Notes: a model not told the origin generated them from the sequence alone. A stretch of 64,000 nucleotides of DNA from an uncultured Acidobacteriaceae bacterium (GCA_963848325.1 CAWKDJ010000010.1:24689-88688), one strand, 5' to 3'; counted from the first letter of the stretch, positions 1,435 to 5,674 are shown. Numbers and translations are program-made.

Positions 1435-2385
1435 CTAAATGCCGCCCTCAAAAATCTTCTTCGACAAATACCGTTCGGCGGAATCGGGAATCATGGTCGC
1501 AACGCGCTTGCCTGGGCCCAAGCGTTTGGCTACTTGGACAGCGGCAAAAACGTTGGCACCGGCGCTCGATCCGCCTAACACGCCTTCCTGTGCGGCAAGT
1601 TTTTTTACCATGCCGAAAGCATCGACATCGGTAACCATCAATACTTCGTCACAAACCGAGGGATCGAAGTTCTTCGGCATGAAACTCGCTCCAATGCCCT
1701 CAACTTTGTGCTTGCCAGCTTTTCCGCCTCCCAGGATCGATCCTTCGGGCTCGACCGCAAACGCAAGAACCTTGGGCAGGTGGTCTTTCATGTATCGTGC
1801 GATCCCGGTAAATGTCCCCGCGGTTCCCGCCCCAATCACGATGGCGTCAACTCGTCCCTCCATTTGTTCGAAGATTTCGGCAGCTGTGGTTTCGTAGTGG
1901 TAATCAGGGTTGGCGGGGTTTTCGAACTGCGACGCCATGAACGCGTTGCTGTCGCGGGCCGTGAGATCCTTTGCTCGATTAATGGCGCCTTGCATGCCCT
2001 CGCCGTCTGGAGTGCGGGTGACCTCGGCCCCGAGGGCCCGCATAATAATGACCTTCTCCTCGGAAAAACGCTCCGGCACGAACAACGCCACTTTGTAACC
2101 ACGGTTCACACCGATCAGGGCTAGACCGATGCCGGTATTGCCGGCGGTCGCCTCAACGATCGTCCCGCCGGGTTTGAGCCGGCCATCTTTCTCAGCCCGG
2201 CGAATGATCCCGATCGCGGCGCGGTCTTTCACGCTTCCGCCGGGGTTCAGGTATTCGAGCTTGGCGTAGACTTCGGCTGCGCCAACCGGCACAACGCGCT
2301 TAAGCCGAAGCATGGGGGTTTCTCCGACGAGTTGAGTGATATCGTCGGAAACTTTCAGGCGGGTAGGCTCAATAGTTTTCTGCAC
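1435..2385 (-). CDS. cysK: cysteine synthase / O-acetylserine sulfhydrylase family (CysK/CysM/MccA-like, PLP fold type II)
   Basis: Motifs 'GETPMLRL', 'LNPGGSVKDRAA', 'EATAGNTGIGLA' and C-terminal 'GGSSAGANV' align with CysK. The six-frame ORF extends to 2652, but that extension crosses the island boundary at 2424 and is not CysK-like. I placed the start at GTG 2385, which gives an 'MQKTIEPTRLKVSDDITQLVGETPMLRL' N-terminus matching E. coli CysK. An ATG at 2313 with a GGAGA Shine-Dalgarno is the alternative. Confidence 0.75.
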   Translation of the reverse strand: MQKTIEPTRLKVSDDITQLVGETPMLRLKRVVPVGAAEVYAKLEYLNPGGSVKDRAAIGIIRRAEKDGRLKPGGTIVEATAGNTGIGLALIGVNRGYKVALFVPERFSEEKVIIMRALGAEVTRTPDGEGMQGAINRAKDLTARDSNAFMASQFENPANPDYHYETTAAEIFEQMEGRVDAIVIGAGTAGTFTGIARYMKDHLPKVLAFAVEPEGSILGGGKAGKHKVEGIGASFMPKNFDPSVCDEVLMVTDVDAFGMVKKLAAQEGVLGGSSAGANVFAAVQVAKRLGPGKRVATMIPDSAERYLSKKIFEGGI

Positions 2386-2423
2386 ATTACAGGTTACGGA
2401 AGCCGGGTGGAAGGCGTCAATTG

Positions 2424-2453
2424 CACCAAAGTTTGGGTAGTGGTTCAGTTTGA
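2424..2453. repeat. left terminal inverted repeat of the 3.2-kb island (caccaaagtttgggtagtggttcagtttgaa)
   Basis: The reverse complement of 5633-5663 matches 26 of 28 positions (one mismatch, one 1-nt indel). Each copy contains the near-palindrome CCAAAGTTTGG. Confidence 0.6.
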
Positions 2454-2500
2454 AATTCCACAGGCTAGCATTCGGCTTCGGCCTGTGGGAAACTGTCGGC

Positions 2501-2710
2501 ATGGCAAACAAACCCAAGATGTACGTCATCAAGAGGGACGCGAGCGGCAACGCGATTTCCGGCAATTGCTCTACGTGTGGACGGCTCTTCCTGTTTGAAG
2601 ATACGCCAGAAGGCAGACGGATAGAAAAAGCCTTCGAGACGCATGAATGCAAGCGGCTGGACGAAAGCCAGAACGCCTTGCGCGTCGTGAGAGAAGCTAC
2701 CGAGGACTAA
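2501..2710 (+). CDS. small hypothetical Cys/His-containing protein (69 aa from ATG 2501; ORF track starts at 2450)
   Basis: Open frame just inside the left inverted repeat: 'MANKPKMYVIKRDASGNAISGNCSTCGRLF...ETHECKRL'. No clear Shine-Dalgarno. Convergent with the phage-like gene, with a 4-bp overlap of stops. Confidence 0.3.
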   Translation: MANKPKMYVIKRDASGNAISGNCSTCGRLFLFEDTPEGRRIEKAFETHECKRLDESQNALRVVREATED

Positions 2711-3732
2711 TCAGCAGCTTTTATCGTTGGTAAGTAAAGCCTCAGTTGCACTGGGGATTTACCGTACATCTCGGCCATTTTGTCGCGCAATTCCCGCATT
2801 GTCTGGCAGGTCTTAGCGACACCAATTAACGTGAAAATGTGCTGGACCAGCCTCCGCAAGCCGTACTGCTCCGTCAGCCATTGATGCCAATTTCGTCCCT
2901 TTTGCGGATGTGGTTTATTGTCCTTCAACCACTTGCAAACATCGGCGTCTAGGTACGAATAAACAAGCTCCGTAACTAGAATCCCCCAGTATTTCGGTCG
3001 TTGAGTCACTGTACCTTTCCAATTTGTCAGCCTAGCAAATTCTATCCAAAGCTCTTGCGGGAAGGTGCTTTCCCAGTCTCGCATTTCCTCCGCCAAGTAA
3101 GCCTTTAACTTCACGCGCAATGCATCAACCGCCCTGTCGTACTGGTATCCGGTTGCTTCATCAATAAGCGCATCCAGCCCGACCTTCGCGCAAGCTGCCA
3201 GAAGAAAACTTGCACGCATGGCCATTTGCTTTTGACGGTCAGTGAGCCTGACCGCATTACCCGTGAGACTGGCTTCCATCGCGGTGACGAACCCACGCCA
3301 TACCTCGATTGCAAGATCGGCTGGCAGACCTTTAACGTCGCGCTCGAGTCCCTCTACTTCCGGCAACGAAAAGGCCACCATTCCCTCGAGCACCATGTCT
3401 ATGTTAATAAAGGGTTTAAGGGATGAAACCCCAAGATATTTCTCGAGGTCACCACCGCCTTTGATTCCTGTCAGAGATTCGGTATATGCAGTTCTCCCGA
3501 TTACGCGCTGCCCGGTGTCCAGCACATAGCAAGGAATCTCCGAACCGACCAGAGGGAGTACACCTTTGTAAAGCGCGGTCGGAAGTTTATGTTCTGGCAA
3601 TCGAACTAACTTGCCCTTCCGGTTCTTCCATCTGGCCGATGCAGCCTTTGAAGCTCGAGCACTCCGCTGTTCCGGCGTCATCGACTCCGCTAGAACAATA
3701 GCTCCTTTTGCCTTCCCGGTAACTTCTTCCAT
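2707..3732 (-). CDS. phage-associated protein of unknown function (possibly P63C/antirepressor-like; unverified)
   Basis: 341-aa ORF with ATG at 3732 preceded by an AGTGAGG Shine-Dalgarno. Lower-GC composition. The N-terminal basic stretch 'SARASKAASARWKNRKG' is typical of phage proteins. The P63C assignment is from memory, not from a search. Confidence 0.6.
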   Translation of the reverse strand: MEEVTGKAKGAIVLAESMTPEQRSARASKAASARWKNRKGKLVRLPEHKLPTALYKGVLPLVGSEIPCYVLDTGQRVIGRTAYTESLTGIKGGGDLEKYLGVSSLKPFINIDMVLEGMVAFSLPEVEGLERDVKGLPADLAIEVWRGFVTAMEASLTGNAVRLTDRQKQMAMRASFLLAACAKVGLDALIDEATGYQYDRAVDALRVKLKAYLAEEMRDWESTFPQELWIEFARLTNWKGTVTQRPKYWGILVTELVYSYLDADVCKWLKDNKPHPQKGRNWHQWLTEQYGLRRLVQHIFTLIGVAKTCQTMRELRDKMAEMYGKSPVQLRLYLPTIKAAD

Positions 3733-3762
3733 AGAGCCTCACTTTCTATCCCTATACTTGCA

Positions 3763-4665
3763 TTTTATGCTTGCATTGTCAATAGAATACTGCTAGCATC
3801 CATGCATCATGAATCGGCTTGCTACCGACAAACGCACCGCAGTAATCGCCGCCCTAATCGAAGGCACCTCGATTAACGCCACTTGCCGCATGACAGGCAC
3901 CGCCAAGAACACAGTCTTGAAACTCCTCAAGGAGATCGGTTGCGCGTGCGCCGCATATCACAATGCCCACGTCCGCAATCTCCGCGTTCGCCGGGTTCAA
4001 GCCGATGAGATTTGGAGCTTTGTATATGGCAAAGATAAGAACCTAACGCTCGAGCAAGTCCAGAGCGGCTTGGGAAGCGTCTGGACGTGGAAGGCGATTG
4101 ATGCCGACACGAAGCTGGTTATCTCGTACACAATCGGAGATCGTGGAGCGGATACAGCGAAAGCCTTCATGCAGGACATTGCTTCGCGGGTCATCAATCG
4201 GATTCAACTAACCACAGACGGCCATCGCGTCTACGCCGACGCAGTCGAAGATGCGTTCGGCTCTGAGATCGACTATGCGATGCTGGTTAAAATCTACGGT
4301 GCATCGAACGAAAATCCCGAATCGCGCTACAGCCCCGCAACCTGCATCGGATGCCGCACTGGAGTTCTCGCAGGAAACCCCGACCCAGACCACATCTCTA
4401 CTTCATTTGTGGAGCGCAGCAATTTATCAATGAGAATGGGGATGCGCCGATTCACCCGCTTAACAAACGGGTTCAGCAGGAAAGTGGAGAACCACGGTCA
4501 CATGGTTGCGCTGTACTTCATGCACTTCAACTTCTGCCGGGTGCACAAAACCCTTCGAGTTACCCCAGCAATGGAAGCAGGGATAGCAGACCATGTGTGG
4601 ACGATTGATGAACTTTTATTTCTGCTCGACAGGAAGCCCCAGTCTGATTCGCATGGCGGGTAGCG
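3763..4665 (+). mobile_element. IS1-family insertion sequence (~903 bp) flanked by a 9-bp direct repeat ATACTTGCA (3754-3762 and 4666-4674)
   Basis: The exact 9-mer direct repeat brackets the transposase ORF. A 9-bp target-site duplication is characteristic of IS1. Removing the element in silico restores a TAG stop for the ImmA gene and a 19-bp Shine-Dalgarno-containing spacer before the downstream gene. I could not recognise terminal inverted repeats. Confidence 0.45.
3809..4663 (+). CDS. IS1-family DDE transposase (single-ORF type)
   Basis: 284 aa with an N-terminal HTH-like region. The C-terminal block 'FVERSNLSMRMGMRRFTRLTNGFSRKVENHGHMVALYFMHFNFCRVHKTLRVTPAMEAGI' is the conserved signature of IS1-type transposases (family assignment from memory). 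Confidence 0.75.
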   Translation: MNRLATDKRTAVIAALIEGTSINATCRMTGTAKNTVLKLLKEIGCACAAYHNAHVRNLRVRRVQADEIWSFVYGKDKNLTLEQVQSGLGSVWTWKAIDADTKLVISYTIGDRGADTAKAFMQDIASRVINRIQLTTDGHRVYADAVEDAFGSEIDYAMLVKIYGASNENPESRYSPATCIGCRTGVLAGNPDPDHISTSFVERSNLSMRMGMRRFTRLTNGFSRKVENHGHMVALYFMHFNFCRVHKTLRVTPAMEAGIADHVWTIDELLFLLDRKPQSDSHGG

Positions 4666-5128
4666 ATACTTGCAGACGAGCAGCTAAGCTCTCTGGATCG
4701 CGGATGCCAGCGTCTAGCAGCTGCTTAATCAGCGGAAGAGGCATAAGAATGTCCGCAGCAAGCCGATTGGCAGCGGTTTCCTCCTTGCTGGTCAATCCGC
4801 TTCTGTACATAGCGTCGTCGATCAGGTCTCCGCTTTCGAGTTTGCGGCGATGAAGAATGAAATGAGCAATCTCGTGAGCTACAGTAAATCTTTGACGGAC
4901 AAGAGAGTGGGATTCATTAACGGCAATACTGAATCCGGTAGTTGGACCGCCATTCATCGGATCGCGAAAAATCTTCCCAGACACCGAGTCAGGGAGAGAT
5001 TTTTTCCATACGTTTACACCGAGATCACTGGCAATCGCTACGACATCCACGGGAGCTTGGCGTTGATACTTGGCAATGATCTGACCAGGCGTCAAAACTT
5101 CAACTGGATTTTCCGTCGTCGCGGGCAT
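4616..5128 (-). CDS. ImmA/IrrE-family (COG2856) zinc metallopeptidase
   Basis: HExxH motif 'HEIAHFILH' in a ~170-aa protein. ATG at 5128 with an AGGGGAG Shine-Dalgarno. The last ~16 codons (SLPAMRIRLGLPVEQK) are read from inside the IS. The pre-insertion reading ends ...ARLQV-TAG. Confidence 0.8.
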   Translation of the reverse strand: MPATTENPVEVLTPGQIIAKYQRQAPVDVVAIASDLGVNVWKKSLPDSVSGKIFRDPMNGGPTTGFSIAVNESHSLVRQRFTVAHEIAHFILHRRKLESGDLIDDAMYRSGLTSKEETAANRLAADILMPLPLIKQLLDAGIRDPESLAARLQVSLPAMRIRLGLPVEQK

Positions 5129-5522
5129 CCTTACTCCCCTCTCCCGGATACTTTGCAATAGGCGTCGCTTGCTGATCCACTGATTCCAAGGGCGTTTCCA
5201 CGATACCCCCTTGTACACCATGTTTTGATGCGGTTTCAACTACCTTCGGTTCAGGGGCGGTTACCACCTGATTTCTGACCTGATCCAAGAAATCTGCCTG
5301 ATCCCGTAACCGCTGCATTGTCTTAAGCATATCGGCTGCATCAGGATATTTCTTGAGGGCTTCCTTCATGGCCTCGTCAACCCGCTTTGCAGCGGTTTCC
5401 TTCAGGGAGTCTCGAAGGCCGACGTATCCCCAGATGGCTAATGCCGCAATTCCAAGAGTGACCACTGCTAGCATAACGGCGAGCGCCGTTAGAATTATTG
5501 TAATGGCACCTTCAAAGGACAT
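5100..5522 (-). CDS. small membrane-anchored coiled-coil protein (one N-terminal TM helix, charged helical C-terminus)
   Basis: 'MSFEGAITIILTALAVMLAVVTLGIAALAIWGYV' followed by a K/E/D-rich helix. Overlaps the ImmA start by 29 nt on the same strand. The start is uncertain (ATG at 5522 or GTG at 5564). No Shine-Dalgarno seen. Confidence 0.5.
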   Translation of the reverse strand: MSFEGAITIILTALAVMLAVVTLGIAALAIWGYVGLRDSLKETAAKRVDEAMKEALKKYPDAADMLKTMQRLRDQADFLDQVRNQVVTAPEPKVVETASKHGVQGGIVETPLESVDQQATPIAKYPGEGSKDARDDGKSS

Positions 5523-5632
5523 GTGCTGGACAGCATTCGCGGCATGATAGAGTCGTTCACACACGCGAAGAAACCATACACCCTAGTGAGCCGCGAGGGC
5601 AATCGGATGCCCACTCTTGCGTGGGGGCAACC

Positions 5633-5663
5633 TTCAAACTGAACCACTACCAAAGTTTGGGGG
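5633..5663. repeat. right terminal inverted repeat of the island (ttcaaactgaaccactaccaaagtttggggg)
   Basis: Reverse complement matches 2424-2453. It lies 12 bp downstream of the VWA stop codon. Confidence 0.6.
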
Positions 5664-5674
5664 CAATAATCGCT

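Follow-up and report, generated by a model that had tools for sequence, protein, structure and literature searches.

Transporter insertion sequences (tIS) are derivatives of insertion sequences (IS) that carry passenger genes, a category defined by the ISfinder group (PMC3129680, PMC9330008, PMC7986276). The described examples that we consulted come from other families, one of them being ISDsp3, an IS6 element with a single hypothetical passenger (PMC7986276). Unit transposons of the Tn3 family with toxin-antitoxin passengers have also been reviewed (PMC9330008). We analyzed a stretch of 64,000 nucleotides (nt) of DNA from an uncultured Acidobacteriaceae bacterium (GCA_963848325.1 CAWKDJ010000010.1:24689-88688), which we call the window. 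Positions 2436-5651 of the window (3216 bp) very probably constitute a single, apparently intact tIS of the IS1 family, or small unit transposon, with its passenger genes. IS with passengers are a known kind of element, and the transposase concerned is already labelled as IS1-family in public databases. The assignment is based on the ends of the element and the duplication flanking them, the family of its transposase and the conservation of the DDE residues, the site left empty in relatives, and the independent insertion of sister elements.

A repeat search of the window identified an inverted repeat with arms of 35 nt (2420-2454 and 5633-5667; 86% complementary) bounding the segment. Within these arms, the terminal core GGTAGTGGTTCAGTTTGAA is matched at 19 of 19 positions (2436-2454 against the reverse complement of 5633-5651). 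Inverted repeats around this segment had been proposed from the sequence alone (hereafter, the original prediction), and this proposal was borne out, except that the left arm ends at 2454, and not at 2453. The 17-mer core TAGTGGTTCAGTTTGAA occurs exactly twice in the 64 kb, even with up to three mismatches allowed (0.08 occurrences expected). Additional copies of the terminal repeat were not found in the window at up to five mismatches, nor was a second copy of the transposase; with two copies only, the repeat is not a generic genome-wide palindrome. The 12-mer CCAAAGTTTGGG is present on the plus strand at both borders (2426-2437 and 5650-5661). Comparison with related elements resolved it into an 8-bp direct repeat, AAAGTTTG (2428-2435 and 5652-5659), and the GG/CC tips of the inverted repeats. 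The mini-palindrome CCAAAGTTTGG, previously taken for a feature of the repeats, actually consists of this duplication and the tips, and a target-site duplication, previously described as not evident, is present as a perfect 8-bp sequence outside both tips. GC content is 52.2% in the element and 57.3% elsewhere in the window, the former being the lowest value among 304 sliding windows of 3216 bp. The segment had, therefore, been correctly identified as low in GC, but the size of the difference had been overstated, as the flanking 300-bp windows contain 54-65% GC, and not 60-68%. All five of the open reading frames (ORFs) named in the original prediction are present (a small Cys-containing ORF, a “phage-like” protein with a P63C domain, an IS transposase, an ImmA/M78 peptidase and a membrane protein), and the segment is located, as stated there, between the 3' end of a VWA gene and the cysK promoter.

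The insertion interrupts no gene and lies 7 nt upstream from the -35-like box of cysK. Searching metagenomes with the VWA protein of the flank yielded 80 orthologous loci, and the gene order VWA2-VWA-cysK-CGS is kept in those long enough to show it. Orthologous VWA-cysK loci lack the island, and the genes it carries are absent from this position in related genomes. For the 25 VWA-cysK spacers measured, 11 were 147-420 bp long, giving the empty site anticipated for related Acidobacteria, and 14 were 576-2821 bp long. The spacer in the window, of 3361 bp, is reduced to 137 bp by the removal of the element and one copy of the duplication. The resulting junction, CCCCCAAACTTTGGTGCAATTGACGCC / ...ATTGCCCCCAAACTTTGGTGCAATTGACGCC... 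(also written ATTGCACCAAAGTTTGGGGGCAAT), matches those of orthologues (L104, CCCCCCTTTGGTGCATTGACGC; L087, GCCCTTTGGTGCGATTGACGCC; L numbers are our designations for loci), and TTGACGCC-N15-TA(A/C)CCT is conserved in orthologous spacers. An exact-protein look-up of the cysK product for an empty allele returned no record.

The cysK promoter region as a whole (window 2340-2427, minus strand) is strongly conserved as TTGACGCC-N15-TA(A/C)CCTGTA(G/A)(A/T)GTGCA in orthologous loci with 75-86% protein identity. About 12 nt upstream from the -35 box are also conserved, and the insertion falls inside that stretch. The orthologous spacer of L083 (1977-3010) contains an independent, decayed relative of the element, with repeats GGTACTGTCTTGAGA / GGCAGTGTCTTAAAC and the duplication AGCTGGTC, inserted 8 nt upstream from the same -35 box and retaining only a 40-aa C-terminal fragment of the transposase and one ORF. 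The shared position of these two insertions (n = 2) may reflect a preferred target site. Extra spacer DNA of 0.7-2.8 kb, unrelated to this IS family and partly common to several loci, was found in L086, L094-L096, L098, L108, L122, L144, L146, L147 and L158, and genes seem to have been gained repeatedly in the VWA-cysK spacer.

A scan for transposase homologues, covering one genome per species, returned 80 loci. Most were from Acidobacteriota (Terriglobales, Sulfotelmatobacter, Acidiferrales), the others being assigned, according to their assemblies, to Verrucomicrobiota, Patescibacteria, Nitrospiraceae, Polyangiaceae, Limnocylindria and the betaproteobacterium Caenimonas. The 19-mer beginning GGTAGTG was found upstream of the transposase gene, with its reverse complement downstream, at a distance of 1.8-5.3 kb, in 54 of the 80 loci, giving 55 elements with that of the window. 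A perfect 8-bp duplication, differing in sequence from locus to locus, flanks 50 of the 55, and the remaining five have duplications with one mismatch. As a single 8-bp match has a probability of about 1 in 65,000 of occurring by chance, the ends of the element and the length of the duplication can be considered settled. The order of components across elements is left terminal inverted repeat (IRL), small ORF from about nt 65, a first cargo position (slot 1), transposase, a second cargo position (slot 2) and right terminal inverted repeat (IRR); one clade has the small ORF at the opposite end, likewise reading inward. Three loci (L170, L171 and L173) are 82-88% identical in DNA sequence to nt 222-2190 of the element, which encompass the tail of the small ORF, the P63C gene and the transposase gene. 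They lie in three unrelated contexts, each with the repeat pair and a perfect duplication of its own (cacgtagc, cgtccggc and ccacttcc, respectively).

As in tIS, IS-type ends and a duplication enclose both the transposase and genes not involved in transposition (those for the P63C protein, the peptidase and the membrane protein, all between IRL and IRR), and the whole unit has moved, with the small ORF, P63C and transposase found together at the three other loci and the orthologous loci empty. The element differs from the tIS described in having two cargo positions flanking the transposase and a very high cargo turnover among close relatives. An ISfinder subgroup of IS1 (ISMhu11) extends to ~4.6 kb; no mention of ISMhu11 was found in the literature searched. 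The element resembles the Tn3-family transposons in being non-composite and in the toxin-antitoxin genes carried by its relatives (YhaV, HigB, Fic/Doc, SocA, HTH_3). It is, however, much smaller, with a transposase of a different family (Tn3 transposases are far larger) and no resolvase or res site, and its duplication is 8 bp long, versus 5 bp for Tn3.

The transposase matched the Pfam model DDE_Tnp_IS1 (PF03400) at 39 bits (cut-off 24.1), and transpos_IS1 was its top NCBIfam match (65.8 bits), under the cut-off of 100 for that model. Matches to IS6/IS240 and IS1595 profiles were below threshold and weaker than those to IS1. A database search with the transposase gave at least 8000 proteins at E ≤ 1e-10, and the source-named homologues (JGI, NCBI) among the 120 best listed are all called “IS1 family transposase”. 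The protein has a region resembling a helix-turn-helix (HTH) at its N-terminus. Residues D66, D137 and E202-R203-x-N205 are invariant across 68 relatives, and the ORF is full-length and retains every residue invariant in these relatives; D66, D137 and E202 are the putative catalytic residues. BLASTP against InsB of IS1A aligned 40 residues, around ER-x-N-L-x2-R. Searches of PDB sequences with the transposase and the P63C protein yielded nothing useful, and an exact look-up of the transposase retrieved one 1.5-kb Logan contig identical to window 3430-4944, which adds no further context. Judging from these matches, the transposase is probably a distant member of the IS1 family.

The terminal repeats of IS1-family elements have the consensus GGnnnTG, and single-ORF subgroups of this family are said to exist. 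The element encodes an IS1-type DDE domain and its ends (GGTAGTG) begin with the GG...TG pattern. IS1A of Enterobacteriaceae is the type member of the family, and the annotated copy used as a reference has, as we read it, ends GGTGATG... / ...CATTACC and a 9-bp duplication, TGAAATCGT. Thus, like IS1A, the element has a DDE_Tnp_IS1 transposase with an ER-x-N-x3-R motif around the catalytic E, short repeats of the form GGT..TG (GGTGATG / GGTAATG in IS1A) and a short target duplication of fixed length (8 bp here), within the 8-9 bp expected for IS1. By contrast, IS1A is 768 bp long and contains only InsA/InsAB', two overlapping frames joined by a -1 frameshift, with a zinc finger at the N-terminus, whereas the element is 3216 bp long, with a single-ORF transposase without a frameshift, a separate small ORF with no profile tie to InsA, and four passenger or accessory genes.

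We propose that the element's own DDE transposase (3809-4663) would recognize both 19-bp terminal inverted repeats, cut at their GG tips and join the ends to target DNA opened by staggered cuts 8 bp apart. The AAAGTTTG duplication now flanking the element would have arisen when this stagger was repaired. Everything between the repeats would move as a unit: the small protein, the P63C protein and the pair formed by the membrane protein and the ImmA/IrrE peptidase. The pathway could be cut-and-paste or replicative.

Several points weigh against this interpretation of the element as an intact IS1-family tIS. The NCBIfam score falls short of its cut-off (65.8 versus 100 bits), the alignment with InsB spans only 40 residues, sub-threshold IS6/IS240 matches exist, and the InsA/InsAB' frameshift organization is absent, although this absence does not exclude the element from the IS1 family, because subgroups with a single ORF reportedly exist. 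Its presumed current activity follows only from its intactness; we observed neither a transposition event nor an excised circle in this very strain, nor an empty allele that would indicate polymorphism. The roles suggested for the window passengers, as addiction, defence or regulatory modules favouring retention of the element, are predicted functions, and PADLOC recognized no defence system in the window cargo, only a capP-like component.

The family assignment has one minor competitor, an IS6/IS26 or unnamed intermediate family, which would imply obligatory cointegrate formation. An 8-bp duplication is a hallmark of IS6 (PMC7986276), the ends begin with GG, like those of IS26, and the transposase has weak matches to PF13610 (24.6 bits) and to the NCBIfam IS6 model (25 bits; cut-off 125). 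We nevertheless consider this family improbable, as the IS1 models score clearly higher (39 bits, above cut-off, and 65.8 bits), the PF13610 score does not reach the cut-off for that model (27), the transposase aligns with InsB of IS1A at the ER-x-N-x3-R motif, and the protein, at 284 aa, exceeds the 213-254 aa given for IS6 transposases (PMC7986276). Of the features of IS6/IS26 elements (a DDE domain of that type, a length of 0.7-0.9 kb, a 14-bp repeat and an 8-bp duplication), only the duplication fits. The possibility of a non-autonomous element (a mobile insertion cassette or a miniature inverted-repeat transposable element, MITE), or of a decayed relic unable to move alone, draws on the unproven activity of the window copy and on the existence of such derivatives in the family. 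Decayed copies are present in L083 and L162, and L166-L168 (7892-8083) contain a MITE-like 192-bp family repeat pair, GGTAGTGGTGCAGTTTCAG ... TTCAAACAGCACCACTACC, without coding capacity, which has the appearance of a non-autonomous derivative of this family. MITEs and mobile insertion cassettes have IS ends without a transposase, whereas the window copy combines perfect repeats and a perfect duplication with a full-length transposase ORF containing all the residues invariant in the 68 relatives, making its inability to move alone very unlikely.

The original prediction had left three options for the repeats, of which transposon terminal repeats stood, whereas invertase sites and the ends of a non-autonomous element did not, given the lack of a recombinase and the presence of the element's own full-length transposase. 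For an invertible DNA switch, in which an invertase would flip the 3.2-kb segment at the inverted repeats, the long repeats bounding a segment beside a promoter are suggestive. However, neither ORF listing nor profile searches revealed a serine or tyrosine recombinase, whether within the segment or next to it, an 8-bp direct duplication of the insertion type lies outside the repeats, the repeat pair with its duplication recurs at more than 50 unrelated sites, and the whole segment is absent from orthologous loci, so that we give this explanation almost no weight. We accord equally little credence to a phage or integrative-element remnant with CCAAAGTTTGGG as the core of an attachment (att) site, boundary repeats that are not IS ends, and a later insertion of the IS. 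A 12-bp direct repeat does occur at both borders, and P63C and ImmA genes are typical of phages, but the same searches found no integrase or invertase inside the segment, and the 12-mer splits into an 8-bp duplication, different in every relative, and conserved repeat tips. Moreover, no second repeat pair, nearer to the transposase, stands out from chance: the only candidate for a smaller IS nested around it (3812-3830 / 4750-4768; 17 of 19 matches) was rejected because it is at the level of other, presumably chance, pairs and lies inside two ORFs. The description of the island as phage/mobile-like was right in spirit, but the segment is a single unit transposon rather than the remains of a phage carrying an IS. 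The features of this IS1-family tIS and its insertion site are listed in Table 1.

Table 1. Positions in the window of the features of the element and its insertion site.
Feature	Position	Strand	Description
-35-like box TTGACG of the conserved cysK promoter	2415..2420	-	in the flank, outside the element; 7 nt from the duplication
Target-site duplication, left copy (AAAGTTTG)	2428..2435	none	same 8-mer directly outside both tips
IRL (GGTAGTGGTTCAGTTTGAA)	2436..2454	+	perfect match to IRR; GGTAGTG tip kept in relatives of several phyla
Subterminal hairpin (TTCCACAGGC...GCCTGTGGGAA)	2456..2491	+	between IRL and the small ORF
Small ORF, 69 aa from ATG	2501..2710	+	adjoins IRL; variable middle (C-x2-C...H-x-C here) and conserved tail (DESQNALRVVREATED)
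P63C-domain protein, 341 aa	2707..3732	-	slot 1; PF10546, 1.2e-22; full-length match to phrog_2384, 2.9e-76
IS1-family DDE transposase, 284 aa	3809..4663	+	intact, single ORF; Pfam and NCBIfam profile matches
ImmA/IrrE M78 metallopeptidase, 170 aa	4616..5128	-	slot 2; HEIAH motif; PF06114, 2.7e-19; PADLOC capP, 9e-27
Membrane-anchored protein, 140 aa	5100..5522	-	slot 2; 3' end overlaps the start of ImmA
Sigma-54-like motif (TGGGCATCCGATTGC; GG-N10-GC)	5599..5613	-	39 nt inside the right tip, facing inward
IRR	5633..5651	-	perfect reverse complement of IRL
Target-site duplication, right copy (AAAGTTTG)	5652..5659	none	identical to the left copy

Of the 54 related elements in which both ends are present, 40 have a counterpart of the small ORF at the same end, and the consensus of its tail across elements is D(E/A)SQxAxR(V/I)VREAT. 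Pairwise comparison of the tail codons of 21 elements yielded 1042 synonymous and 415 nonsynonymous differences, an excess indicating that the small ORF is protein-coding. It had no matches in Pfam, NCBIfam, PHROG or PADLOC. An equivalence with InsA was considered and rejected, being without profile support, and the Cys/His pattern varies among relatives. No homology to window positions 2509-2656 (element nt 74-221) could be detected in L170, L171 and L173, the sequences flanking this divergent middle being 82-88% identical on the cargo side and 85-91% identical over the short left end. The middle of the ORF is, thus, a hypervariable cassette between a conserved left end and a conserved tail of 14-17 codons (window, L170, L171, L173 and L001-L017), with at least two unrelated types, one with C-x2-C...H-x-C and the other an SH3-like VGD...Y.V type. 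The small ORFs of distant clades (for example, L051:5121-5378, L062 and L075) contain the motif KNPAAVALGRLGGLKGGKARAxxLSxxxRxxIAxxAAxxRW, and the same motif, as ...LSPEQRxxxAxKAAxARW, opens P63C proteins (residues 18-36 of that in the window). The P63C proteins and distant small ORFs clustered together because of this common module.

The P63C-domain protein has DNA-binding-like folds; in the portions of the literature retrieved, the term “P63C domain” appeared only in incidental mentions. In slot 2, the membrane protein and the M78 peptidase are translationally coupled, with the membrane partner upstream. The 140-aa protein has an N-terminal hydrophobic stretch, read by eye as a putative single transmembrane (TM) helix, and no family match above threshold in the profile libraries. 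The peptidase matched CapP (7t5t, 1.5e-5) and also IrrE in PDB. This pair resembles the ImmA/ImmR and CapP/CapH pairs in that an M78 metallopeptidase with an HExxH motif, related to CapP and IrrE, is coupled to an upstream partner gene. Unlike the adjacent XRE-family HTH repressor of those pairs, however, the partner in the window is a membrane-anchored protein of about 140 aa without an HTH match and, unlike CapP/CapH, the pair has no cyclic-oligonucleotide-based antiphage signalling system (CBASS) or other effector adjacent to it in the window. None of the 80 genome loci with a transposase homologue was found to contain the TM+ImmA pair. In L162-L165 and L168, a gene for the same TM partner lies ahead of the ImmA homologue, and in L166 it can be read as an uncalled ORF. 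The order in a decayed sister element (L162/L163) is inverted repeat, TM, ImmA, 3' fragment of the transposase, with 78% DNA identity (L162:443-1343), and the pair also stands alone on the chromosome beside ordinary genes (L164:4107-5007; L166-L168:4155-4995). TM+ImmA is, thus, a conserved two-gene module that also exists outside any IS.

The subterminal regions contain two further features. The hairpin at the left end is kept in the close clade, with predicted folding energies of -11.6 to -24.5 kcal/mol (-21.1 in the window). It was rejected as a family-wide structure, as it is absent from distant clades. At the end opposite the small ORF, an inward-facing TGG-N8-(T/G)TGC motif, mostly 37-38 or 47-48 nt from the tip, was found in about 20-25 of the 55 elements, including the R-type ends of L001-L003, L007-L010, L012-L015, L019, L044, L049, L051, L055 and L061. 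In the window, this sigma-54-like motif lies upstream of the TM-ImmA operon. Its interpretation as a general cargo promoter was dropped, because the adjacent cargo often reads outward in other elements; it may be a promoter, an antisense promoter or a protein-binding site. A sigma-70 promoter scan of the element gave no matches, and Rfam and tRNA scans found nothing.

The cargo of relatives was surveyed with 128 ORFs from 54 related elements, and was highly variable, with a high turnover even between close relatives. The commonest Pfam matches were HTH_3 (11), P63C (6), SDH-type protease (5), DUF3467 (5) and NYN (5), followed by Fic (4), YhaV toxin (4), M78 (3), SocA/Panacea (2), GmrSD (1), dCTP-deaminase-like (1) and HigB (1). 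PADLOC identified SoFic (5, best 3e-100), HEC-09 (5), PD-Lambda-2_B (5), RmrA (4) and PDC-S04 (4) and, more rarely, HEC-06 (1, 1e-170), capP (2) and capH (2). These profile matches indicate that the passengers are often toxin-antitoxin or candidate defence genes. Our literature search, which did not cover ISfinder and is weak evidence in this respect, found no description of IS1-family elements with such an architecture or with defence cargo.

We tentatively raise the possibility, which we consider rather doubtful, that the element belongs to an undescribed, widespread lineage of IS1-family “cargo shuttles”, with a fixed architecture, two slots with a fast turnover and a hypervariable small protein. 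Such a lineage would be most abundant in soil Acidobacteriota, with the order IRL, small protein, slot 1, transposase, slot 2, sigma-54-like motif and IRR, and its slots would often hold toxin-antitoxin or anti-phage genes (SoFic, HEC-06/09, PD-Lambda-2, RmrA, GmrSD, dCTP-deaminase-like). The end-proximal small protein, with its hypervariable domain and conserved tail, could act on transposition or the cargo as a specificity or regulatory factor, and the P63C and TM-ImmA of the window would be uncharacterized defence or addiction modules. As many of the family's passengers match toxin-antitoxin or candidate anti-phage families, and P63C and TM-ImmA are uncharacterized, the family could be mined, through guilt by association, for new defence or addiction modules, and could exemplify the spread of defence genes on IS-sized vehicles. 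For annotation, the segment becomes one 3216-bp mobile unit with exact ends, which may uncouple cysK from upstream regulatory sequence. The GGTAGTG... repeat pair and 8-bp duplication provide a cheap sequence marker for delimiting small, recently mobile cargo in uncultured soil bacteria.

Some related loci had more complex arrangements. A 5.3-kb unit in L065 (1517-6831) has two different transposase genes and non-identical outer repeats, with one perfect 8-bp duplication, and second repeat pairs or abutting ends lie beside full elements in L074 (6894-7590) and L040 (7633-7678); these arrangements may be tandem or nested insertions moving as one. Relatives of the transposase were also present in six contigs from viral collections. 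A contig classed as viral, from IMG/VR (L176:4315-6824), and a metagenome-assembled genome of Patescibacteria (L061:5315-7824) contain elements that agree in length (2510 bp), in their repeat and in their duplication, cagaaatg.

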